Position numbers and translations under genes: made by a program. A stretch of 64,000 nucleotides of DNA, taken from positions 374 to 64,373 of the forward strand of contig DASTLY010000092.1 of assembly GCA_035714445.1 (NCBI GenBank), read 5' to 3'. The notes under the pieces were generated by a model. It ran no database searches. It was not told the origin of the DNA and saw only the letters and a list, made by a program, of their open reading frames with translations. Shown here in pieces: positions 23,868-36,345 of this stretch. The stretch comes from Mycobacteriales bacterium. GTDB lineage: Bacteria > Actinomycetota > Actinomycetes > Mycobacteriales > SCTD01. Each line of letters starts with the position of its first letter. Position 1 is the first letter of the stretch.

Positions 23868-26400
23868 GTGCTCACCTTCGCCCTGAAGGGCCTGCTGGCC
23901 CACAAGCTGCGCCTGTTCATGACCTCGCTGTCCATCGCGCTCGGGTGTCGCCTTCGTCGCCGGCACCCTCGTTCTGACCGACTCCCTCAACGCCTCGTTC
24001 TCGGCCGCCTACACCCACCAGTACGCCGGGGCCGACATGGTCGTGCGCTCCCAGGCGGCGTACACCGACAGCGAGGCGCCCGACCAGCGGGCGCCGGTCC
24101 GCTCCGACCTCGTCGGGCAGCTCCGCCGACTGCCGGGGGTTGCGACCGCGACGGGTGCCGTACGCGGGTTCGCGCTGATGGTCGACGAGGACGGCGAGAC
24201 GATCGGGGCCGGGCTCCAGGCCAACAACGGCATGAGCGCCCCGTCCACCGACGGCGCAATCCGTTACGCCACCGGCCGCGCCCCCGCCGGCCCGGGCGAG
24301 GTCGCCGTGGACGCCGGCAGCGCCGCTGACGCCGCCCTCGCGGTGGGCGACCGGATCCGCGTGGTCTTCCAGGGGCCGCCGCGCGAGTTCACCGTCGTGG
24401 GCGTCGCCCGCTTCGGCAAGGACGACCGGCTCGGCAGCACCAGCACGGCGCTGTTCGACCTCGAGACCGCGCAGCAGGTCCTGGGCAAGGCCGGGGCCTA
24501 CGACGAGGTGCTCCTCACCGCACGGGACGGCACGTCGCCTGCGGTGCTGCGCGACACCGTCGCCGCAGCGCTCCCCGAGCAGACCGAGGTGCTCTCCGCA
24601 GCCGCCGTCGCCGACGAACGGACCGACCTGCTCAAGGCCCAGCTGAGCTTCATCAACGTCTTCCTGCTCGTCTTCGCCGGGATCGCCGTCTTCGTCGGCT
24701 CCTTCATCATCTGGAACACCTTCACCATCCTGGTGGCGCAGCGCAGCCGGGAGCTCGCGCTGCTGCGCGCGCTCGGGGCCACCCGGCGGCAGGTGACACG
24801 GTCCGTGCTCGCCGAGGCCGTCGTCGTCGGGCTGCTCGCGTCGGCGCTCGGGCTCGGGCTCGGGCTGCTGGTCGCCAAGCTGCTCGTCCTCATGCTCGCG
24901 GCGACGGGCGTCGAGATGACCTCGCCGGGGTTCGGCATGGCGCCTCGTACCGTCGCCGTGTCGGTCCTGGTCGGGGTCGTCGTCACCGTGCTGGCGTCGC
25001 TGGCCCCGGCACGGATGGCGACACGGGTCGCTCCCATCGAGGCGCTGCGGGACGCCGCCCCCGGCAGCTACCGGCCCTCGAGGCGGCGGGCGGGCCTGGG
25101 CGGCCTGGTGACCGCAGTGGGGGTGGCCGGGCTGGCCGGCGGCCTGTTCGCGGGCAGCGGCATCGCGCTGGTCGGGCTCGGCGCTTCCGTCACGTTCCTG
25201 GGCATCACGACCCTGCTGCCCCTCGTCGCCCGGCCCGCGGCCCGGCTGATCGGAGCGCCGCTCCCGCGCCTGGGTGGGATGCCGGGCAAGCTGGCCCGGG
25301 ACAACGCCATGCGCAACCCCCGGCGGACGGCGTCGACCGCCGCCGCGCTCATGATCGGCCTGGCCGTCGTCGCGAGCGTGACGGTCCTGGCCACGTCGCT
25401 CAAGGCGAGCATCGGCTCCGACATCGAGCGCACCCTGCGCGGCGAGCTGGTCGTCCAGCAGGTGGGCGGCCAGGGCGCCGGGCTGAGCCCGGAGGTCGCC
25501 CGCACAGTCGCGGCTGTGCCGGGCGTTGCCGCCGCTTCGCCCCTCGGCTTCGGCCGCGGCAGGGTCGACGGCATGGTCACCTACGTGGCGCCGGTCGACC
25601 CCGCCACAGTCGAGCGCGTCGTGGAGCTGGGCGTATCCCGTGGCACTGTCGCGAGCCTGGCCGACGGTGGACTGCTCGTGCACGAGGCGACAGCCGAGGA
25701 GAAGGGCTGGGCAGTCGGCGACCCGGTGCCGGTTGAGTGGCCGCAGACCGGGGCTACGACTATGCCCGTCGCCGGCATCTTCACCGAGAAAGACCTCATC
25801 GGGGCCGACTACGCGCTGTCGCTGCGGGAGTTCGACCGCAACGTCGCGGGCCGCCTGGACACAAAGGTGCTCGTCAAGGTGTGGGACGGCGCCGACGTGT
25901 CCCAGGTGGCTAGGGCCGTGACCACGGCTGCCCGTGCGTTCCCAGACGCGGAGGTCCTGACGGGACAGGAGCTGGACGAGTCCGTCTCCGGCCAGGTCGA
26001 CGAGTTCCTGCTGTTCGTTACCGCGCTGCTGCTACTCGCGGTCTTCATCGCGCTGATCGGCATCGTCAACACCCTGGCTCTGTCGGTCTTCGAGCGGACC
26101 CGCGAGATCGGGCTGCTGCGCGCGGTGGGCATGACGCGCCGACAGGTGCGCGGGATGGTGCGCTGGGAGTCCGCGGTCATCGCGGCGATCGGGGCGGTGA
26201 CCGGGTCCGTGGTCGGTCTCGGGTTCGGTGTCGCCCTTGTCACGGCACTCGAGGACGAGGGAGTGTCCACGCTCGCCGTACCCGTCCCGCGCCTACTCCT
26301 GTACGTCCTGGCCGCGGCGCTGGCCGGAGTGCTCGCCGCGCTCGGCCCGGCGCGGCGAGCGTCCAACATCGACGTCCTCACCGCGGTCACGAATGATTGA
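23868..26400 (+). pseudogene. FtsX/MacB-type ABC permease with +1 frameshift near 23944
   Basis: MLTFALKGLLAHKLRLFMTSLSIAL is joined to GVAFVAGTLVLTDS by removing one G from GGG at 23943-23945. Two FtsX motifs follow (QRSRELALLRALGATRRQ; ERTREIGLLRAVGM). Confidence 0.85.
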
Positions 26401-26557
26401 AGTACGACCAGGGGGCGGCTCCTGCACCAGGGGCTGCCCTCTGGGCGCTGGCCCTGGCCGTGGGCTCACCGAGGAGGGCGAGGACGTCGAGTTCCTGGAG
26501 CCTCGCTTCGACGAGGCCCTAGCCCGGGGCTTCACGTTAGCGTCGTGAAGTTGCGGG

Positions 26558-26662
26558 TGTCGTTGAACTGAAAACTGCTCCTGATGGCGGTCCCAGGCCA
26601 CGACCCCTGACGGTGGCCGGTGACAGTCCCCGCACCTCCATGTGCCGCAGGTGCGCCTCGAC
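26558..26662 (-). mobile_element. Possible mobile-element scar: tyrosine-recombinase N-terminal fragment next to a TGT-type terminus
   Basis: Minus-strand VEAHLRHMEVRGLSPATVRG resembles integrase SAM-like N-termini. An AT-richer TGTCGTTGAACTGAAAAC lies at 26558. Confidence 0.3.
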
Positions 26663-27025
26663 CGGGCAGCGGGTAGGCGTGCTCACGCCTCGAGCACCTG
26701 TGCGCCACGACCAGCAGCGCTGCCAGGCCCCGGCCTGTCGTGCGGTAACCGTCCTCGAAGAAGGCGTCTGCGTCACCGAGCACCTCTGACCTGTCCCGGC
26801 TCACCGTCGAGCTTCGACCAGCACCCGGACCGGCACGGGGGCGCTGTCGTCCCGTCCTCGCACGTGCATTCCTCCACCCGGGCCGCTGTGGGACCCCGGA
26901 CTTCGTGTCGGCGTCCCACGTGTAGCGAGGGCGGGCATGTCGTCGCTCCTCATTCCGGTAGCCCGCGGGCAGGGATCGCGCGCCGGCCATGTGACCAGCG
27001 CCGGACCTCAACCTCGCCGGGCAGG

Positions 27026-27742
27026 TCAATAGCTGTAGGGGTTGGCGGGTTCGCCGATTGCCGTCAGTCGGCTGGCGGTCAGCGTGGCGTCGGCCTGTGA
27101 CCTCTGATCGTCGTTCACGCCCGGGGTGGCCTGGCCTCGGCCTTCCACCTGCCACCAGGTGTCGGCTGGCGGCGTCGTCGGGGAGGCGATGAACACGCGT
27201 ACGGCTTGCCCGTCCGCAGCGCAGCAGTTCAGGGCGATGCGGGTCAGGTAGAAGCCGCTGCCGTGCCGCGCCCGTTCCTCGGGTGTGGCTGGGACCGCGA
27301 ACCCGACCAGGCGCAGTTGGGCCTGCTCGAGTCCGGCGGGCTCGAAGGCGGCTCGGCGGGCGTACTCCCGCAGGGTGAGCTCCACCGCGCCGTTGCGGGC
27401 CGGTGGGAGGGACCCGAGCGTGCCCTGCGGGGCTTGTACGACCGTCGTCCTGCCCTGCAGGCCGTAGGAGCCGAGCGCGGGCGGGTCGACGAGCAGGATC
27501 AGTCCGATGGGGACGGCGAGCAACCACCCGACCTGGGACGGCGCGGGACCCTGCGGTCGAGCCGAGCGGTAGGCCGCGAAGACCCCGGCAGCCCCGACCA
27601 GCGCCAGCGCCAGGCCGCTGACCAGCAGCGGCGATCCGAGCCAGGGCTTGACGTAGCGCAGGTGGGAGCCGGTGCGCACGAGCTGCACGACGACGACGCC
27701 CAGGACCAGCAGCAGGGCGGACGGGGCGGCGCGGCCGGTCAC
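27026..27742 (-). CDS. TIGR03943/DUF1980 (YcgQ-like) permease subunit
   Basis: LRYVKP, PPALGS, LRLVGF, FYLTRIALNCCAAD and DTWWQVEG motifs. GTGA overlap with the upstream permease. Confidence 0.9.
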   Translation of the reverse strand: MTGRAAPSALLLVLGVVVVQLVRTGSHLRYVKPWLGSPLLVSGLALALVGAAGVFAAYRSARPQGPAPSQVGWLLAVPIGLILLVDPPALGSYGLQGRTTVVQAPQGTLGSLPPARNGAVELTLREYARRAAFEPAGLEQAQLRLVGFAVPATPEERARHGSGFYLTRIALNCCAADGQAVRVFIASPTTPPADTWWQVEGRGQATPGVNDDQRSQADATLTASRLTAIGEPANPYSY

Positions 27743-28782
27743 AGCAGTGACCCGGTCAGCACGCTGGCGGTGACGGCTGCCGCAAGGGCGAGCGGGCAGA
27801 ATCGCGCTGCGAAGCGCCGGCCGAACGTCCCGACGTGCAGGGCGACCAGCTTCACGTCGACGACCGGGCCGACGACCATGAAGGCCAGCTGTGCGGTGCG
27901 GGAGAACTGGGTGAAGCTCGCGGCGACGAACGCGTCGGCCTCGCTGCACACCGCCAGCACGATCGCGAGCACCACCAGGGTGAGGACCGCGAGCGCTCCC
28001 TGGCCCCCGAAGGTGTCCAGGACGCTGCGAGGGACAAGCACGTGCAGCGCCGCGGAGGTCATGGCGCCGAGCACGAGGAAGCCCCCGGCCTGCAGGAAGT
28101 CGTGGGTGGCGACCTGCAGCGCGTGCCCCCCGCGGCTGGTGCGGCCGTGCCGCGTGTGCACGGCCCGCTCGAGCAGCCACTGCGGCTTGCCGAACCGGCA
28201 CCACAGCAGCCCCACGAGCACCGCAGTCGCCAGCGCCGCGACCAGCCGGGCCAGGACCATCGCGGGCTGAGCCGGGAACGCCACGTAGGTGCTGACGAGC
28301 ACGATCGGGTTCACCGCGGGAGCCGACAGCAGGAAGGTCAGGGCCACGCCCTGCGGCACGCCGCGGGAGATCAGCCCGCTGGCGACCGGCACCGAGCCGC
28401 ACTCGCACCCGGGCAGCAGCGCCCCGGCGAGGCCCGCGACCGGCACCGCCAGGCCCGGCCGAGCGGGCAGCGCCCGCATCAGCAGCTCCGACGGCAGGAC
28501 GGTCGCGATCACTGTCGAGATGAGGATGCCCAACGCCAGGAACGGCACGGCCTGCACGCACACCGAGACGGCGATCGTGGCCCACGTGGTGGTGGCCTGC
28601 ACGTCGACCAGCCCGGACAGCGGGCCGCGCACCACCAGGACCACGCACAGGACCAGGACCGCGGCGATGATGGCGGCGTCGGGCACCACGGGCTCGGGCC
28701 GGGTGCCCGAGGCCGGGCTGCAGCAGTCGTCGCCCTCGGTGCCGGCCGCCCCGTGCTGGTCGGGCCTGACGGGCGCCGTCAC
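27739..28782 (-). CDS. DUF318/ArsP-like (YcgR-like) permease
   Basis: QAVPFLALG, LPGCECGSVPV, FLLSAPAVNP, LAVCSEADAFVA and GPVVDVKL motifs. The N-terminus carries DDCC. Confidence 0.92.
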   Translation of the reverse strand: MTAPVRPDQHGAAGTEGDDCCSPASGTRPEPVVPDAAIIAAVLVLCVVLVVRGPLSGLVDVQATTTWATIAVSVCVQAVPFLALGILISTVIATVLPSELLMRALPARPGLAVPVAGLAGALLPGCECGSVPVASGLISRGVPQGVALTFLLSAPAVNPIVLVSTYVAFPAQPAMVLARLVAALATAVLVGLLWCRFGKPQWLLERAVHTRHGRTSRGGHALQVATHDFLQAGGFLVLGAMTSAALHVLVPRSVLDTFGGQGALAVLTLVVLAIVLAVCSEADAFVAASFTQFSRTAQLAFMVVGPVVDVKLVALHVGTFGRRFAARFCPLALAAAVTASVLTGSLL

Positions 28783-29576
28783 GAGTCGGGAGCGGGGCTG
28801 GAGGTGCGGGCCCGCTCGGGTGAGGGCGCCGGCTGGCCGGCCAGCTTCTGTCGGGCCTGCTGGAAGTAGCCCGCGGCGAACGTGTCCAGGTCCGTACCCT
28901 GGCCGTTGCCGTTGCCGACGACCGCGCTCAGCAGGACGTCGCCCTGGGCCGCGACCAGGTAGGTGTACTCGACCGCCTGCCTCCCGACGGCAGTGGCGGG
29001 CGTGGCGACCAGGTGCGCGCCGGCGCTGCTGCCGCCGACAGGCGGCGCGATCAGCGCCAGCTCGACCGGGGTGTCCGGGTAGCCGGCGAACGTGGTTCGC
29101 CACGTGGAACAGCCTTGCAACGCCTGGACGCGTTCCTGCAACGCCTGCTGCGCGCCCGGACCGGTGTACTGGGCCAGCTCGAACGTCATCGCCATCCCGC
29201 CAGGGACGTCGCGCTCGTTCTGCCGCACGCTGCGGCGCAGCACCTGCACCCGCGCGGCATCGCTGGCGTAGCCGGCCGCGCACGGGTGCACCAGACCTGG
29301 GCCGTCGGTGATCTGCTGGGACGCGGCCTGCTCGTCGGCGATCCAGCCGTAGCCCAGCTCGGGTGGCGCCGGGAACAGCTCCGACAGATCCCCCTCAGCA
29401 CGCTGCGTGAGGTCCTCCTCGACGCTCGGTGCAGCGACTATGGCCGCCCCGCCACCCGAGCGGGGCTCTCTGTTCAGGCCGCTGGTGAGCAGGACGGCAC
29501 CGACGACACACCCGAGCACCATGGCCGCGGGCGCCAGCCAACCCCTCGTCGTCCGCCGACCTGGCATCCCCGTCAC
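28779..29576 (-). CDS. Membrane-anchored hypothetical protein, possibly PknH-like extracellular domain
   Basis: N-terminal TM helix, PELGYGW, and two Cys (HPC, QGC). Translationally coupled to the permease via GTGA, with an AGGAGGG RBS. Confidence 0.65.
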   Translation of the reverse strand: MTGMPGRRTTRGWLAPAAMVLGCVVGAVLLTSGLNREPRSGGGAAIVAAPSVEEDLTQRAEGDLSELFPAPPELGYGWIADEQAASQQITDGPGLVHPCAAGYASDAARVQVLRRSVRQNERDVPGGMAMTFELAQYTGPGAQQALQERVQALQGCSTWRTTFAGYPDTPVELALIAPPVGGSSAGAHLVATPATAVGRQAVEYTYLVAAQGDVLLSAVVGNGNGQGTDLDTFAAGYFQQARQKLAGQPAPSPERARTSSPAPDS

Positions 29577-30177
29577 CCTCCTGTCCGTCGTGTGCAGCCT
29601 CCGCCATCTCGCACCGACCTGGCCGACCGGTCAGTGACCGGCGGCCTCGGCGCACCCTGCCACGCACAGGCCGCCGGATGAAGCATCGCCGCAGTGATGT
29701 GTGGACAGCGGTGCGTCGGCGCACCCGCGTGTCGCAGCTTGAACGCTGCCTCACCGCACCGGAGTTGGACAGGCTGCTGGAGAACGTCGGCAGCGTGGCG
29801 GGCCAGCTGCGCCGGCTACGTCTGCGACAGAAAGCCGGCTGGCAGGCGCCGCCGGGTCAGCAGCTCTGACGGGAGCCTGCGGCGGGCAGGCGCGACGAGC
29901 TGAGGCCGGCGAGCGGGCCTGGGCGGGCCTGGCGTGTTGCAGGCAGGCCGAGCAGGCTGGTGAAGCGGTAGCGGGAACCTGGTGTGACCGCACCGGGCGA
30001 CGGCGACGTGTAGCCCGGTGCCGTCCTCCTCCTTGCCTGGACCGAGACCCGTCAGCACCGACGCCGTCGCTGACCTGGTCACGCCTTCTCCCGCCGGTCG
30101 AAGGCCAGCAGCAGGTCCAGGGCCAAACGCTGGTCGGCCGGCAGCGGCAGGGTCGGGACCGCGGCTTGCCGGGCGCG

Positions 30178-30353
30178 GCACGGCTGACACGGTCTCCAGC
30201 GGGCAGCCGCGGTCCGGGCAGGTCAGCTGTGTCAGGAAGACCGCGGCTTCGTCGGCGAGGTCCAGCACAGGCCGACCCCATTTCCTGCAGGCGCTGCCGG
30301 ACCAGGTGCGGCACCGGCGCGGAGGTGGACCCTGGAGATACCGAGATCAGCAC
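30178..30353 (-). pseudogene. Decayed small Cys-motif (CPxxGCP-LETV) protein gene
   Basis: RKWGRPVLDLADEAAVFLTQLTCPDRGCPLETVSAV. The in-frame start is unclear and the flanks look degenerate. It lies divergent from the Zur-like box. Confidence 0.45.
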
Positions 30354-30366
30354 GTCGCAGTGCGTG

Positions 30367-30387
30367 TAATGACAACGAATGTCACTA
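30367..30387. promoter_or_regulatory. Putative Zur (Fur-family) operator
   Basis: AT-rich 21-bp palindrome TAATGACAACGAATGTCACTA (TAATGA-N9-TCAcTA), adjacent to a -10-like TAGGCT at 30392-30397. Confidence 0.75.
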
Positions 30388-30403
30388 CGGTTAGGCTGGG
30401 CGC

Positions 30404-30781
30404 ATGACTACTCGTGGTCTCGCTGTCTGCACCGGCCATCGCTGCGCGGCACTGCTAGCTGCCGACGGGGACGGCTGGTGCGATCTGCGGGCGGCCGTCC
30501 AGGGAAGCCGGGCTGGGGTGTTGGTCTCCACCGGGTGCACGGGTTCCTGCGCCCGTGGGCCGGTCGTCGCGCTGTCCCAGCACCTCCAGGTGCACCGGGA
30601 CGGCCCGGGGCCCGGCGTGCAGGTGCAGTTCGGCGCGGTCATCTGGCTCGGTCCGGTCGGGGGTCAGCAGCTGTCGGCCTTGTGCCAGTGGCTGGGACAG
30701 GACCAGGGCAGCGCCGTGCTGCCCCGCTCGCTGCGTCCGGCGGTGTTCGTGCCGCAGCCGACGGGAGCTAGTTCCGTGTGA
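30404..30781 (+). CDS. Thioredoxin-like (2Fe-2S) ferredoxin-domain protein
   Basis: VCTGHRC...TGCTGSCARGPVV (Cx4C...Cx3C) and WLGPV. Leaderless start 6 nt after TAGGCT. Confidence 0.7.
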   Translation: MTTRGLAVCTGHRCAALLAADGDGWCDLRAAVQGSRAGVLVSTGCTGSCARGPVVALSQHLQVHRDGPGPGVQVQFGAVIWLGPVGGQQLSALCQWLGQDQGSAVLPRSLRPAVFVPQPTGASSV

Positions 30782-31053
30782 GCTTTCGCGGGGAGCAGCA
30801 AGCGCGCGACGTTGTTCCTGCCCGGCGCGCCACTGCCGTGCCCGGACCCCGTGGCAGTTCGACCGGGTCGCTGACCTGCCATGAGAGCGTCGGGTCCGGC
30901 CCCCGAGGCGAGGGCAAGGGCTTGCCGTACAAGTCCCCTTAGGCTGACCCCGAGCCGTCCTCGCTGCGCGGCCGGCCACCCCGTGCCACGCCTGCCGTCA
31001 GGACCACACAACCAGGACCGCCAGGCAGGACCGATGAGACAGGCAGGAGTCCG

Positions 31054-31335
31054 ATGATCTTCTCCGGGGTGCTGGGACGCGCGGGCGGGCTGGTCGTGAG
31101 TGGGCTGGTGGGCGCCGCCGCGTACGACGGCGTGAAGCGCGTGGCCCGGCAGGTGCCGGCCCGCGAGGTCGCGATCACCACGGCCGCCTGGGCGCTGCGC
31201 GCCGTGCGGCAGGCCGAGCGCGGTGCCGAGGCCGCGCGGCTGTCCACCGCCGACGTGTTCGCGGAGGCCCGCGGGCGGCTCGGGGAGCAGTCGCCGGTGC
31301 CGGGCACCGCGCCGGCGCACGACCACGACCACTGA
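31054..31335 (+). CDS. DUF1490 family PacL-like P-ATPase chaperone (Rv3269-like)
   Basis: VVSGLVGAAAYD TM segment, AEAARLSTADVFAEARGRLGE, and C-terminal HDHDH. It lies directly upstream of a CtpC-like ATPase. Confidence 0.9.
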   Translation: MIFSGVLGRAGGLVVSGLVGAAAYDGVKRVARQVPAREVAITTAAWALRAVRQAERGAEAARLSTADVFAEARGRLGEQSPVPGTAPAHDHDH

Positions 31336-31342
31336 GCGGGCC

Positions 31343-33568
31343 GTGAGCGCGCCGGTTGCCCTGCCCCTGGCCGAGCCGCCGGCGACGGAGCCAGACCGCG
31401 GTGTGCGGGTGCTGTCGGACGCCGCCGGCCGGCTGCGCGCCCGGGTGCTGGAGCTGGTCGACTCGCCCGACCGGGCGGTCGCGGTCGAGGACGCGGTCGA
31501 GCAGGTCGTCGGGGTGCGCGCGGTGCACGCCTACCCGCGCACCGGCTCGGTCGTCGTCTGGTACTCCCCCGGTCGTACCGACCTGGCGCACGTGCTGCGC
31601 GCCGTGGGCAACGCCCTCGACGTTCCGGCCGGGCTCGCTCCTGCGCGGCAGCCGCGCTCGGCCGACGTCGACAACAGCGACCTGGTGCGGATGGTCGTCG
31701 GCGGCGCCGCCCTGGTGCTGCTGGGCACCCGCCGCTACGTGCTGCGCCGACCGCCGGTGCTCGGGCCGTCCAGCCGGCTGTTCGCGACCGGCGTCACGGT
31801 GTTCACCGGCTACCCGTTCCTGCGCGGCGCGCTGCGCTCGCTCGGCGGCGGCCGTGGTGCCGGCACCGACGCCCTGGTGTCGGCGGCGACGGTCGCGAGC
31901 CTGGTGCTGCGCGAGAACGTCGTCGCGCTGACCGTGCTGTGGCTGCTCAACATCGGCGAGTGGCTGCAGGACCTCACGCTGCGCCGCACCCGACGGGCGA
32001 TCTCGGACCTGCTGACGGGCGTGCAGGACACCGTGTGGGTGCGCCTCGCGGACGGCACCGAGGTCAGCGTGGACGTCGAGACCCTGCAGGTCGGCGACCT
32101 CGTCGTCGTCCACCAGCACGTCGCGCTGCCCGTCGACGGCGTCGTCGTCGAAGGCGAGGGCGTGCTGGACCAGGCCGCCATCACCGGCGAGGCGGTGCCG
32201 GTGGCCGCCGGGCCGGGTACGCGGGTGCACGCGGGCACGGTGCTCGTCACCGGGCGGCTGGTCCTGCGCGCCACAGCCGTCGGCCACGACACCGCCATCG
32301 GCCGCATCATCGACCGGGTCGAGCGGGCGCAGGCCGACCGGGCGCCGATCCAGACGGTCGGGGAGACCTTCTCGCGGCGGTTCGTGCCCGCCTCCTTCGC
32401 GCTGTCGGCCGTCACCCTGCTGGTCACCCGCGACGTGCGCCGGGCGATGACGATGCTGCTGGTGGCCTGCCCGTGCGCGGTGGGCCTGTCCACGCCGACC
32501 GCGATCAGCGGCGCGATCGGCAACGGCGCCCGGCGCGGGATCCTCATCAAGGGCGGCTCGCACCTCGAGCTCGCCGGCCGCGTCGACGCCGTCGTGTTCG
32601 ACAAGACCGGCACGCTCACGGTCGGCCGGCCGGTGGTGACCAACGTCCTGAGCTTCTCCGAGCAGTGGGAGCCCGAGCAGGTCCTCGCGTACGCCGCAAG
32701 CAGCGAGATCCACTCCCGGCACCCGCTCGCCCAGGCCGTGATCCGCTCCACCGAGGAGCGCCACATCGTCATCCCGCCGCACGAGGAGTGCGAAGCCGTG
32801 CTCGGGCAGGGGATGCGCACGCAGGCCGACGGCCGCACCCTGCTGCTGGGCAGTGCCGCGCTGCTGCGCGCCGAGGGCGTCACCGTCGTTCGCAAGGCCA
32901 GCAGCTGGGTCAAGCGGCTGCAGCGCGCCGCGGAGACGCCGCTGCTGCTCGCCGTCGACGGCACTCTCGTCGGCCTGGTCAGCCTGCGCGACACCGTGCG
33001 CCCCGAGGCGCCGGCCGTCCTGCAGGGGCTGCGCGACCGGGGCGTACGACGGATCGTGATGCTGACCGGCGACCACCCCGACACGGCGGCGGCCGTCGCC
33101 GCCGAGCTGGCCGTGACCGAGTGGCACGCCCAGGTGCTGCCCGAGGACAAGCAGGACCTGGTCCGCGACCTGCAGGCCGCCGGCCACGTCGTGGCGATGG
33201 TCGGCGACGGCACCAACGACGCGCCCGCGCTCGCGCTGGCCGACATCGGCGTCGCGATGGGCATCGCCGGCACCGACGTCGCCGTCGAGACCGCCGACGC
33301 AGCGCTCGCCGGCGACGACCTGATGAAGCTGCTGGACCTGCTCGACCTCGGCGGCCACACGATCGACGTGATCCGGCAGAACTACGGGATGTCGATCGCG
33401 GTCAACGGCCTGGGCCTCTTGGCCAGCGCTGCCGGCGCGCTGTCCCCGGTGCTCGCGGCCGTCCTGCACAACGCCTCGTCCATCGCGGTGGTCGCCAACA
33501 GCTCCCGGCTCATCCGGCACCGACTGCCCACGACGGCGGCCCAGCTGCCGGCCCGCCCGGAGGTGTGA
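31343..33568 (+). CDS. ctpC: Heavy-metal P1B-type ATPase, CtpC-like
   Basis: VHAYPRTGSVVVWY, TGE, ACPCAVGLSTP, DKTGTLT, SEIHSRHP, MVGDGTNDAPALA and HNASS motifs. Confidence 0.92.
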   Translation: MSAPVALPLAEPPATEPDRGVRVLSDAAGRLRARVLELVDSPDRAVAVEDAVEQVVGVRAVHAYPRTGSVVVWYSPGRTDLAHVLRAVGNALDVPAGLAPARQPRSADVDNSDLVRMVVGGAALVLLGTRRYVLRRPPVLGPSSRLFATGVTVFTGYPFLRGALRSLGGGRGAGTDALVSAATVASLVLRENVVALTVLWLLNIGEWLQDLTLRRTRRAISDLLTGVQDTVWVRLADGTEVSVDVETLQVGDLVVVHQHVALPVDGVVVEGEGVLDQAAITGEAVPVAAGPGTRVHAGTVLVTGRLVLRATAVGHDTAIGRIIDRVERAQADRAPIQTVGETFSRRFVPASFALSAVTLLVTRDVRRAMTMLLVACPCAVGLSTPTAISGAIGNGARRGILIKGGSHLELAGRVDAVVFDKTGTLTVGRPVVTNVLSFSEQWEPEQVLAYAASSEIHSRHPLAQAVIRSTEERHIVIPPHEECEAVLGQGMRTQADGRTLLLGSAALLRAEGVTVVRKASSWVKRLQRAAETPLLLAVDGTLVGLVSLRDTVRPEAPAVLQGLRDRGVRRIVMLTGDHPDTAAAVAAELAVTEWHAQVLPEDKQDLVRDLQAAGHVVAMVGDGTNDAPALALADIGVAMGIAGTDVAVETADAALAGDDLMKLLDLLDLGGHTIDVIRQNYGMSIAVNGLGLLASAAGALSPVLAAVLHNASSIAVVANSSRLIRHRLPTTAAQLPARPEV

Positions 33569-33647
33569 GCCGGCGCGACCCCGCGCCACCCGATCGCGTA
33601 ACAGCGTCGCCGGCTCGAGGGCGACGGCACTTCCCCTCCCGAGCTCT

Positions 33648-33668
33648 AACTGGTACTGATTGTCATCT
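33648..33668. promoter_or_regulatory. Second, weaker Zur-like operator
   Basis: Reverse complement AGATGACAATCAGTACCAGTT shares the ATGACAA half-site with the 30367 box. It is an AT-rich patch just upstream of the beta-propeller gene. Confidence 0.5.
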
Positions 33669-33692
33669 CCGATGAGACGGGAAGTGGCAGTC

Positions 33693-35093
33693 ATGGCAGG
33701 TCTTGACCACGTAGGCCGCCGGCTACGAGGTGGGCCCGGGCGGTCGCCCACGGCCCGCGGCGGTCTGCTGGCGGTGGGTGTCGTAGCAGCAGCCCTGACA
33801 GCCGGGGCGATGCCGGCGGCGGCCGCGACCACGCAGGCCGGGTCGTCGGCGGCGGTGTCCAGCGGGCGCCACCTGCTGGTGGCCGACCCGGCCGCGCAGC
33901 GCCTGTACACCTACCGGCTGTCCGACATGGCTCGCACCGGTGAGCTCAGCGGGATCGAGCTGGCGGCGCACGCCGGGACGGTGGTGCTGCCGGACGGCCG
34001 GGTGCTGCTGGTCGACGACGCGCATGCCCAGGTCGTGGTCCTGACCGTCGATCGCCAGGGCAGGCCGGTGGTGCACAAGCGCATCGACATCCCTGGCGCG
34101 CGGGCGTGGGAGGGCGCGCTGTGGGCGGCGGTCGACCCGGGGGCGAACTACTTCGCGGTGACCTCGGGCTATGACGGTTCGGCTGAGCAGACCGTGACGG
34201 TCGTCGACCTGTTCGACTACTCGGTCGGGCAGCTCCCGGTCCACCTGGACGCCAACGCCACCGGCGGCTTCGACGAGCTGCACGTCTGGCTGGCCGGACA
34301 GCCGCTGCAGGTCGCTGTCAGCACCGGGGGACGGATCCGCAGCTACCCGCTCGACGCGGTGATGGCCGGCCGCCCCGCGGTGCAGACCGGCGCGGCGGCG
34401 GTCGGGCCGAGCACCCACGGACCGGTGCTGTCCCGCGACGGCGACCGGCTGCTCGTCACCACCAGCGAGGGCGTGGACCGGGTGCGCATCGTCGGCGGGC
34501 GGTTGGTGCAGCCCCGCAGCATCGGCTATCCAGGGCCGGCGCCGCTGGTGCAGAACTACCGGCCACGGCTGTCCCAGGACGGCCGCACGCTGTACGGCCC
34601 GATCGCCGAGGACCGGGCCCTGGCGCCGGAGCAGTGGGCCCAGACGATCAACAAGCTCCACACCGTCGACCTCGGCGCCGAGACCGCACAGGTCCGCCCG
34701 CTGGCCCGCGGGATCGTCGGGCGCTCCGCGCAGTCCACCCCGTACGCGCTGTTCCCGGTGATCGGCGGCCAGCAGGACACCGCGCTGTTCGTCAACGTCG
34801 ACGCCGGCTCACCCGGCTTCGGCTCGACCGTCCAGCGCATCCCGCTCGCACCGCTGTCCAGCGGGCCCAAGCCCGGCGTCAGCAGCGCGGGCACGGAACG
34901 ACGCAGTGCGGCGATCACCACCGCGGGAGACCGCGGCTTCGTCAGCCACGGCGGCGACGGCCTGATCTCCGTCGTCGACCCCTCCCGCGCCTCGGTGCGC
35001 GAGACCGTGACGGTGCCGACCACCCTTGCCGGCGGCGGGTACCTCGTGGTCGTCGAGCGGGGTCGCAACCTCGTCGACGTCATGGCCCGCTGA
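33693..35093 (+). CDS. Secreted beta-propeller protein (YncE/AztD-like), start uncertain
   Basis: Arg-rich n-region, hydrophobic h-region and AAA cleavage-like site. Repeated blade-like motifs (LLVAD, PDGRVLLVD, TVTVVDL, SRDGDRLLVT, SQDGRTLY, GLISVVDP) and scattered His. Confidence 0.75.
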   Translation: MAGLDHVGRRLRGGPGRSPTARGGLLAVGVVAAALTAGAMPAAAATTQAGSSAAVSSGRHLLVADPAAQRLYTYRLSDMARTGELSGIELAAHAGTVVLPDGRVLLVDDAHAQVVVLTVDRQGRPVVHKRIDIPGARAWEGALWAAVDPGANYFAVTSGYDGSAEQTVTVVDLFDYSVGQLPVHLDANATGGFDELHVWLAGQPLQVAVSTGGRIRSYPLDAVMAGRPAVQTGAAAVGPSTHGPVLSRDGDRLLVTTSEGVDRVRIVGGRLVQPRSIGYPGPAPLVQNYRPRLSQDGRTLYGPIAEDRALAPEQWAQTINKLHTVDLGAETAQVRPLARGIVGRSAQSTPYALFPVIGGQQDTALFVNVDAGSPGFGSTVQRIPLAPLSSGPKPGVSSAGTERRSAAITTAGDRGFVSHGGDGLISVVDPSRASVRETVTVPTTLAGGGYLVVVERGRNLVDVMAR

Positions 35094-35094
35094 G

Positions 35095-36345
35095 CTACAG
35101 CAGGAAGCGGAACGCCGGGCTGTCCGGCTCCACCCGCTCGATATGCGGCGGGGCGGCCGCCATCCGGGCGAGCAGGCCGGGCAGGTCCTCGGCCCGGCCG
35201 AGCTCGATGCCGACCAGCGCCGGCCCGGTCTCGCGGTTGTTGCGCTTGACGTACTCGAACAGCGTGATGTCGTCGTCCGGGCCGAGCACCTCGTTGAGGA
35301 ACCGGCGCAGCGCTCCCGGCTCCTGCGGGAAGTCGACGAGGAAGTAGTGCTTGCGCCCCTCGTGGACCAGGGCCCGCTCCACCACCTCGCCGTAGCGGCT
35401 GACGTCGTTGTTGCCGCCGGACAGCACGGCGACGACGAGCTCGCCCGGCTCGACCCGCAGAGCGTCGCCGAGGGCGGCCGCGGCCAGCGCCCCGGCGGGC
35501 TCGGCGATGATCCCGTCGGCCTGGTAGAGCGCCAGCATCTCCGTGCAGACCCGCCCCTCGCTCACCGTGACCAGCTCCGCGTCGCGGCACAGCGGGTAGG
35601 TGACCTCGCCGGCCTGCCGTACGGCCGCGCCGTCGACGAAGTTGTCCAGCACCGGCAGCGGCACCGGCCCGCCGGCCGCCACGGCCGCGGCCATGCAGGC
35701 CGCACCGGCCGGCTCGACACCTACCACCCGTACCTCGGGGTGACGCTCGAGCAGCCAGGAGGCAACGCCTGCCAGCAGCCCCCCGCCGCCGACCGGTACG
35801 ACCAGGACGTCGGGCGCCCGGCCGAGCTGGGCGACGACCTCGTGCACGACGCTGCCCTGGCCGGCGGCGGTGCGCGGGTCGTCGAACGCGGGCACGAGCA
35901 CCGCACCGGTGCGGGCGACGTCCTCGAGCGCCGCTGCTGCCGCCTCGTCGTAGGTGTCGCCGCCGACGATCACCTGGACGAGGTCGCCGCCGAGCGCCGC
36001 GATCCGCTCACGCTTCTGCCGCGGCGTCGTACGCGGGAGGTAGACCCGGCCGACGACGTCGAGAGCGGAGCAGGCGTACGCCAGACCCTGCGCGTGGTTG
36101 CCGGCGCTGGCGCACACCACACCCCCGACCCGCTCGGCCGCCGACAGCTGGGCCATGAGGTTGTACGCGCCCCGCAGCTTGTACGAGCGAACCGGCTGCA
36201 GGTCCTCACGCTTGAGGTACACCTGCGCCTGCACCCGGTCCGACAGCCGGATGTTCGGCTCGAGGGGGGTGACGGTGGCGACGCCCGCCAGCCGAGCTGC
36301 GGCGGCCTCGACCGCCGCGGCATCGACGGTCTGCAAGGAGGTCAA
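35095..36345 (-). CDS. ilvA: Threonine ammonia-lyase IlvA (short form)
   Basis: KREDLQPVRSYKLRGA, ASAGNHAQG, VPVGGGGL, SGGNND and FPQEPGAL motifs. Confidence 0.96.
   Translation of the reverse strand: MTSLQTVDAAAVEAAAARLAGVATVTPLEPNIRLSDRVQAQVYLKREDLQPVRSYKLRGAYNLMAQLSAAERVGGVVCASAGNHAQGLAYACSALDVVGRVYLPRTTPRQKRERIAALGGDLVQVIVGGDTYDEAAAAALEDVARTGAVLVPAFDDPRTAAGQGSVVHEVVAQLGRAPDVLVVPVGGGGLLAGVASWLLERHPEVRVVGVEPAGAACMAAAVAAGGPVPLPVLDNFVDGAAVRQAGEVTYPLCRDAELVTVSEGRVCTEMLALYQADGIIAEPAGALAAAALGDALRVEPGELVVAVLSGGNNDVSRYGEVVERALVHEGRKHYFLVDFPQEPGALRRFLNEVLGPDDDITLFEYVKRNNRETGPALVGIELGRAEDLPGLLARMAAAPPHIERVEPDSPAFRFLL

Follow-up and report, generated by a model that had tools for sequence, protein, structure and literature searches.

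In Mycobacterium smegmatis, the genes of the small membrane protein PacL1 and the metal-transporting ATPase CtpC (MSMEG_6059-6058) lie inside the Zur cluster MSMEG_6045-6071, in the vicinity of ABC importer genes and the gene of a secreted protein, and are induced 15-18-fold by N,N,N',N'-tetrakis(2-pyridylmethyl)ethylenediamine (TPEN) and 9-13-fold in a zur mutant (Goethe et al., 2020, PMC7174638). The available text of that study lists no Zur box for MSMEG_6059 and does not discuss the reason for an exporter in the Zur cluster, and deletion of the M. smegmatis pair was reported to cause no zinc sensitivity (10.1101/2021.10.01.462712). In Mycobacterium tuberculosis, the pacL1-ctpC promoter is zinc-induced, 'through an unknown pathway' (PMC13460109), and the pair confers zinc resistance, lowers cellular zinc on expression, which fits efflux, and clusters in membrane foci (10.1101/2021.10.01.462712). 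Here, we report a PacL-CtpC pair that stands between two predicted Zur-type boxes in an island at positions 27026-35093 of a 64,000-nucleotide stretch (the window) of contig DASTLY010000092.1, from a Mycobacteriales bacterium (assembly of 3.88 Mb, completeness 79%), together with genes for a two-gene permease, a ferredoxin-like protein and a likely exported beta-propeller.

The island resembles the M. smegmatis cluster in holding pacL1-ctpC orthologues within what is probably a zinc-starvation cluster, but it is without an ABC importer, CobW and alternative ribosomal genes, and its distinctive parts are instead the new propeller, the ferredoxin and the PknH-like insert. With the M. tuberculosis effluxosome it shares the DUF1490 partner with a His tail, the CPC and HN motifs and the gene order (10.1101/2021.10.01.462712, Boudehen et al.; PMC13043812; PMC13460109), whereas the window's pair lies between predicted zinc-repressed boxes, and the opposite regulation is predicted. 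We consider it rather probable that the locus is a Zur-repressed zinc-starvation island, which combines a propeller zinc store with a PacL-CtpC relief valve. This reading is preferred because the two boxes rank first and third in the genome, the box of znuA ranks second, and the genome encodes a Zur-like protein. An exporter in a starvation cluster, which the initial annotation of this stretch had taken as unexpected and undescribed, is already known, being published for one species (PMC7174638), and 35/47 other pacL-ctpC loci surveyed here are linked to Zur.

Zur-type boxes and the PacL-CtpC pair of the window

The Zur-like palindromes that the initial annotation had noticed at 30367 and 33648 both stood up to a genome-wide scan. 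In a first pass with a Zur consensus, 30367 was the best site of the genome and the site in front of znuA the second. Against the published Zur consensus, box 1 (30367-30387) fits 18/21 positions and box 2 (33648-33668) 16/21, but this degenerate pattern discriminates poorly in GC-rich DNA, where the background reaches 13-16/21. Therefore, we adopted a log-odds matrix built from 47 sites of other genomes, none of them within 500 bp of a pacL start; the consensus of the matrix matches the Zur boxes published for M. smegmatis. At a threshold of at least 12 bits, only five sites were found in the assembly, with box 1 in the lead (26.0 bits), followed by the znuA box (24.0) and box 2 (17.5); the remaining two, at 15.9 bits each, lie in a repeat that opens two of the contigs and were set aside, and the top score across 60 simulated 64-kb sequences was 13.8 bits. 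Counting further boxes in the loci that supplied the training sites would be circular, and such counts were excluded from the evidence. The genome holds three Fur-family genes, one of them Zur-like, and both palindromes are likely Zur-type boxes of zinc-starvation switches. Control by IdeR was rejected: the best match to an IdeR consensus was 13/19, and 8 sites in the genome reach at least 15.

Read by eye, box 1 overlaps a candidate -35 hexamer (ATGACA, 30369), 17 bp 5' of a candidate -10 (TAGGCT, 30392), which lies 6 nt ahead of the ATG at 30404, and the transcript of the ferredoxin gene is, on this layout, likely leaderless; a sigma-70 promoter scan found no promoter. The pump genes follow on the forward strand after a gap of 272 bp. 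PacL (DUF1490, 31054-31335) has 93 residues, with an N-terminal transmembrane (TM) segment, small-xxx-small motifs including the GxxxG-type G8xxxG12, and a C-terminal HDHDH, and matches PF07371 with 100.8 bits. It is separated by 7 bp from a CtpC-type, P1B-6-like ATPase (31343-33568, 741 residues) with the motifs GRLRAR, ACPC in TM4, DKTG and HNASS, which is 69-77% identical to 41 orthologues; the spacing from N to H in the TM5-6 motif N...HNx(S/T) amounts to 20 residues in this protein as in the fetched orthologues, where a review states 18. The initial annotation read the ferredoxin, pump and propeller genes as one rightward run, and the genes are all there, but the 272-bp gap and the propeller's own box speak against a tight unit.

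No Zur box stands ahead of the window's pacL, the best score in 30700-31054, the 350 bp before the gene, being -3 bits. Since no box lies directly before it, Zur control of the window's pump is extrapolated from the other loci. The gap holds a dyad on the forward strand (30916-30945, GGGCTTG-n5-CAAGTCC, followed by TAGGCT), which occurs in a single copy in the genome and is a candidate separate promoter/operator of pacL. A simple scan found no terminator between the ferredoxin gene and pacL.

The pump also resembles the FezAB ferrosome system in being a P1B-6-type ATPase with an R-rich N-terminus (GRLRAR) and a small GxxxG membrane partner (Grant et al., 10.1101/2020.01.10.902569), while differing from it in TM4, which reads ACPC and not D[Y/F]SCA, and in standing among boxes of the Zur type and not of an iron regulator. 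PacL-CtpC might accordingly be thought of as a zinc counterpart of FezAB, made during starvation and loading a membrane-bound store on re-supply. Besides the shared ATPase subfamily, ferrosomes appear after iron starvation ends (10.1101/2020.01.10.902569), PacL1 and CtpC form membrane foci, and control by starvation fits storage better than detoxification. We nevertheless regard such a storage role as very unlikely, given the different TM4 motif, the fall in cellular zinc on expression of the M. tuberculosis pair, which fits efflux, and the fact that the effluxosome and ferrosome literature consulted reports no compartment for PacL-CtpC (10.1101/2021.10.01.462712, 10.1101/2020.01.10.902569).

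Zur linkage of PacL-CtpC loci in other genomes

DUF1490 is encoded in 40/301 genomes of the order and in 17/401 of the class (both counts include this genome). From these, 62 DUF1490 regions were fetched, and 47 of them, from 45 genomes, hold a CtpC-type ATPase (55-77% identity); left out of the count were four regions without an ATPase match (L091-L093, L106), one unscored (L105), and two matches that were not fetched. The 47 loci are related rather than independent, and some are cut by contig ends. Ten paralogous pacL loci from 4 mycobacterial-family genomes, partly near-identical, served as controls.

Zinc-starvation marker genes lie within ~9 kb at 30/47 of the pacL-ctpC loci, namely those of a CobW/Mrf-type GTPase (22 loci), ZnuB-family (17) and ZnuA-family (15) proteins, type B L31 (14) and AztD (3); small ribosomal paralogues other than L31 were also counted as markers, although typing as the zinc-free form covered L31 alone. 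A box of at least 12 bits occurs within 350 bp of pacL at 22/47 loci, versus 0/10 of the paralogous ones. Taking marker and box in union, 35/47 loci are Zur-linked. These marker and box counts, together with the rise of the M. smegmatis pair under TPEN and in the zur mutant, are the reason for assigning the pump a role in starvation. Zur linkage of CtpC across genera was not stated in the available text of the papers on CtpC that the literature searches returned.

The exceptions are concentrated. Ten of the 12 non-linked loci group in a single clade (support 99) that branches from within the Zur-linked lineages in quick IQ-TREE and FastTree trees rooted on the paralogues or at the midpoint, and outside this clade 35/37 loci are Zur-linked; the remaining two are L084, with a weak box, and L067, the window's closest match, with none. 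In place of Zur boxes, the loci of the clade (L055, L057, L074, L075, L076, L080 and L094; L056, L077 and L078) carry AT-rich dyads in two versions, ~45-95 bp 5' of pacL, whose layout we take to be ArsR/SmtB-like. The dyad pattern matched the pacL promoter in 4/5 genomes and otherwise only a coding region, inside a PKS gene, with no further promoter matched in the five genomes. A TIGR03089 gene stands beside nine of the ten loci, presumably the same context as that of M. tuberculosis Rv3268-3270. Because the ten Zur-free loci are one nested clade with another dyad, the sequences suggest that Zur linkage of PacL-CtpC is ancestral and zinc-induced export derived, and the dyad is a candidate operator behind the unexplained zinc induction.

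The survey also bears on a simpler view of the island, namely that it is an accretion, in which box 1 serves the ferredoxin gene and perhaps the leftward genes, box 2 serves the propeller, and pacL-ctpC is an ordinary excess-metal exporter with its own promoter and regulator at 30916-30945. This would fit the 350 bp without a Zur site before pacL and the unique dyad beside TAGGCT, the absence of DUF1490 from 32 and of the propeller from 36 genomes of the window's family (0/32 and 0/36), the different genes that flank ilvA, the island's right-hand neighbour, in three relatives, and the closest CtpC relative (L067, 77% identity), which has no Zur link. It is at odds with the Zur linkage of 35/37 loci outside the Zur-free clade, with the recurrence beside pacL-ctpC of DUF318 head-to-head with pacL (12/47) and of the same ferredoxin family (8/47), and with the lack of a terminator between the ferredoxin gene and pacL in the simple scan. 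On balance, we hold accretion to be unlikely as the explanation.

An AztD-related propeller family

The gene 3' of the pump (33693-35093, +) encodes a likely exported, 8-bladed beta-propeller of 466 residues. Its start is more likely at ATG 33693, 25 bp 3' of box 2, since the alternative TTG at 33660 lies inside the box and GGGAAG precedes the ATG. The protein has no credible Pfam or NCBIfam match. No homologue was found in 60 relatives, and 2/300 other genomes of the order have one. In a profile search of representatives clustered at 50% identity, 119 proteins scored E <=1e-30, a number that includes unrelated repeat proteins; the alignment made from them took in 59 core members of full length and 12 that are more remote. 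Sequence searches of the PDB with the single protein found no relative, and with the profile only generic propeller repeats.

In a predicted model (pLDDT 86.8; eight blades, counted from the strand list), the best match of 48,161 chains was the zinc metallochaperone AztD (6ck1; Z 31.8, rmsd 2.7, 337 aligned residues, 14% identity), the next reaching Z 27.1; in Foldseek, AztD came fifth by E-value and had the top query TM-score among the matches listed, and a single profile comparison with AztD aligned over the full length with a probability of 96-98%. The pore site of AztD consists of His124, His167 and His218, and its transfer site of His99, His102, Asp104 and His408 (PMC6689063). The window propeller aligns W144 (His in 21/59 members), E195/H197 and H242 with the pore site, His242 corresponding to the site-1 His218. 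H93 and H242 are kept in 59/59 members and E195 in 57/59, and H93/E195/H242 are the predicted pore site; furthermore, 68/71 aligned members end in Arg, and 42/71 are without Cys beyond residue 60. Three members are fusions, AztD-LysM-propeller (P0032), AztD-ZinT-propeller (P0049) and ZinT-propeller (P0056).

At the 16 homologous propeller loci examined, of which L011 and L021 are near kin, a box of at least 12 bits lies just 5' of the propeller at 9, a score near 9.6 was obtained at 2, and 2 have none; 3 carry another dyad, which was noticed after the fact. A ZnuA-family gene is a neighbour at 7/16 loci (at L021 by likeness). The protein is like AztD (6ck1, 6cmk; PMC6689063) in being a likely exported 8-bladed propeller with predicted Zur control and, at homologous loci, ZnuA/AztC-type neighbours, and unlike it in its 14% identity, altered site 1, invariant H93 and the absence of aztABC beside it here. 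Because of the AztD fold match, the conservation of H93, E195 and H242, the fusions to AztD and ZinT, the boxes and the ZnuA-family neighbours, we read the propeller as a member of an unnamed AztD-related family predicted to catch zinc. Literature searches on AztD, propellers and zinc returned AztD papers only, and one on AztD, the Zur regulon and Actinobacteria returned none.

Some members of this family stand in settings of their own. In two Polyangiales/Polyangiaceae metagenome-assembled genomes (L013, L016), TGCAA-n5-TTGCA dyads precede the propeller homologues, DUF1826 and a Fur-family gene, and also genes beside those of TonB-dependent receptors (3 and 7 sites with at most one mismatch, seen post hoc); they are likely the local zinc-regulator box. 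A SaoD/DsrE-family gene lies 3' of the propeller at L011:4808-5212, L015:2563-2928 and L021:1739-2143, the label coming from a scan for L015 and from sequence likeness for L011 and L021. In a distant organism, L023:1015-9189 (Ga0187894_10008332) holds a ZIP transporter, DUF5132, a CtpC-like ATPase with CPC and HN motifs, a frameshifted propeller and a ZnuA-family protein, and a TGCAA-n5-TTGCA-like dyad stands before the pump pair (1807) and before the propeller (4532).

Two other functions have to be weighed for the propeller. As an enzyme, or a binder of a zinc chelate or tetrapyrrole, it would not be a chaperone of free zinc; R292, R344, R404 and Y450, at the blade starts, are kept in 52-56/59 members, AztD site 2 is missing, and the structures that follow AztD in the ranking are NirN, NirF and cytochrome cd1 (Z 26-27). 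However, AztD scores more than 4 Z units above these three, the arginines sit at equivalent AztD positions, and the fusions to AztD and ZinT and the ZnuA-type neighbours point to zinc, which makes such a role rather unlikely. The second possibility, raised in the initial annotation, is that exported proteins, in this island the propeller, receive their Mn or Zn from the pump. In the available text of a review, CtpC is described as transporting Mn with high affinity and low turnover and as required for the activity of secreted SodA, AztD is encoded near ctpC at 3/47 loci, and at L023, the one supporting locus for metalation of the propeller, the propeller homologue is directly preceded by a PacL-like (DUF5132) gene and an ATPase gene of 47% identity. 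Against this, the propeller occurs at 0/47 ctpC loci, the pump is absent from 15/16 propeller loci, and the propeller has its own box; in addition, data from M. marinum, as far as the available text goes, argue against Mn export, and ATP-driven zinc export would be costly during starvation. Metalation is thus distinctly unlikely, and of the two ideas of the initial annotation, buffering of metal toxicity during starvation is the more likely.

The gene neighbourhoods show an island put together variably from parts that recur elsewhere, rather than a fixed operon. What stands of the earlier proposal is a likely Zur-type zinc-starvation island with a PacL-CtpC pair and recurring partners, pacL-ctpC co-occurring with DUF318 and TIGR03943 at 14/47 loci and with the ferredoxin at 8/47; what does not is a fixed module of eight genes, as the window's propeller is at none of the 47 ctpC loci, and DUF318/TIGR03943 and a CtpC-like pump are at 0/16 and 1/16 propeller loci, respectively.

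Neighbouring genes and a model of the island

The seven intact genes were all re-located in the sequence where the initial annotation had placed them, in its divergent layout, with the HDHDH tail of PacL and the GTGA overlaps of the leftward genes. On the reverse strand lie a TIGR03943 (YcgQ/DUF1980-type) membrane subunit (27026-27742; 238 residues, 3 predicted TM segments, CCAAD motif; 93 bits, cut-off 88.8) and a DUF318/ArsP_1 permease (27739-28782; 347 residues, ~8 hydrophobic segments, CEC and CSEAD motifs), the latter GTGA-coupled on both sides (27739-42 and 28779-82). Both exceed their family-model cut-offs, and the two coupled genes are organised as in the two-gene permeases YcgR/YcgQ, SMU.746-747 and ScfAB (DUF318 plus TIGR03943; PMC5584981, available text), but, unlike these, the window's pair, as at 14/47 ctpC loci, stands beside pacL-ctpC. 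A literature search for TIGR03943 found no paper, and for this pair the label 'uptake-type' of the initial annotation goes further than the sequence does. At 12 of the 14 loci the pair is head-to-head with pacL, and the window shows the same DUF318/pacL arrangement, widened by inserts to the left and right of the shared box. DUF318/TIGR03943 also occurs on its own in 146/301 genomes of the order, and a Fur-family or zinc-starvation gene is near it at 13/20 hand-picked loci. At L149-L152, L155 and L157-L160 it often adjoins a Fur-family gene, several of these loci having an ArsR-like gene and znuABC as well, and the Fur-adjacent loci span several families of the order.

The ferredoxin-like protein (30404-30781, +) has Cys at C9, C14, C45 and C49 (Cx4C/Cx3C), all four invariant in 10 aligned rows. 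PF01257 falls below its cut-off in 5/7 homologues and has no match for the window protein; the best PDB matches, of the thioredoxin-like ferredoxin family, are weak (E 0.004; Foldseek E 0.05), and a thioredoxin-like [2Fe-2S] ferredoxin is the likely identity. The single-TM protein (28779-29576, -) resembles PknH-type sensor domains, a lead only, through its extracellular sensor fold, and was found at no other fetched locus, whether of ctpC or of DUF318/TIGR03943; its gene is likely an insertion. Beyond a third GTGA (29573-76) follows an interrupted frame (29573-30350, -), described in the initial annotation as a decayed Cys-motif gene, for which we found no support: its frame bias is weak, Pfam on 12 stop-free segments gave nothing credible (one match, E 0.076), tblastn and blastn gave no match in the genome or the fetched loci, and no longer homologue was found, itself weak evidence.

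At the left, a short frame at 26537-26776 (-), by eye like the start of a tyrosine integrase, has no Pfam match and may be the left edge of an insertion. At the right, the propeller gene and ilvA are convergent, and a single base separates their stop codons (35093-35095). The stretch is present in the biocrust metagenome runs X1-X3 (shares 1.00, 0.52 and 0.30); Logan contigs of X1, possibly the source run, are identical to 26400-33222 and 33207-35277, and X2 shares a stop codon within the interrupted frame.

We propose that in low zinc Zur would leave both boxes. Box 2 would then release the propeller, which may bind zinc at its His/Glu/His pore site, as at site 1 of AztD, and serve as a surface zinc store for a ZnuABC importer encoded elsewhere. 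Box 1 would release the ferredoxin gene and then pacL-ctpC by read-through, and, leftward, the DUF318/TIGR03943 pair, as the head-to-head layout at 12/47 other loci suggests. The pump, made in advance, could remove Mn, Co and Cd mis-imported by derepressed importers, as well as the zinc surge on re-supply.

Several points weigh against this proposal. The 272-bp gap between the ferredoxin gene and pacL has no Zur box but a dyad and a -10-like hexamer of its own, the substrate of CtpC is disputed between Zn and Mn (PMC13764973, PMC7858047), and the surveyed loci are interrelated, with only ten controls from four mycobacterial-family genomes. Among 20 other DUF318/TIGR03943 loci, only ~2 have a box where the gene run with the permease begins, and MSMEG_6060 and MSMEG_6061 are not named in the main text of PMC7174638; therefore, the DUF318/TIGR03943 pair may not be Zur-controlled. 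The propeller is without the AztD transfer site 2 (HxxHxD hairpin and C-terminal His) and disulfide, and three conserved pore arginines could bind an anionic ligand instead. It also misses the AztD model NF038015, which matched neither the window propeller nor 17 aligned members, its matches in the fusion proteins falling on the other domain.

More broadly, and only tentatively, as we think it somewhat doubtful, PacL-CtpC may have begun in Actinomycetia at large as a device for zinc starvation, following for zinc the logic of the ferrosome and working with AztD-type surface stores; in one mycobacterial clade, an ArsR/SmtB-type operator would have replaced the Zur box and made the pair the zinc-detoxifying effluxosome, while the propeller would be a second, cross-phylum zinc-capture family with a new His/Glu/His site. 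What looks new in this work is the AztD-related propeller family and the sign that one clade rewired a mostly zinc-starvation PacL-CtpC. CtpC has been treated as a zinc exporter although its metal is disputed, and the Zur linkage of 35/37 loci points to a commoner job in zinc scarcity, while the dyad of the Zur-free clade offers a candidate operator for the zinc induction. The propellers, in turn, form an unnamed and widely spread family, likely zinc-scavenging, that current family libraries miss.

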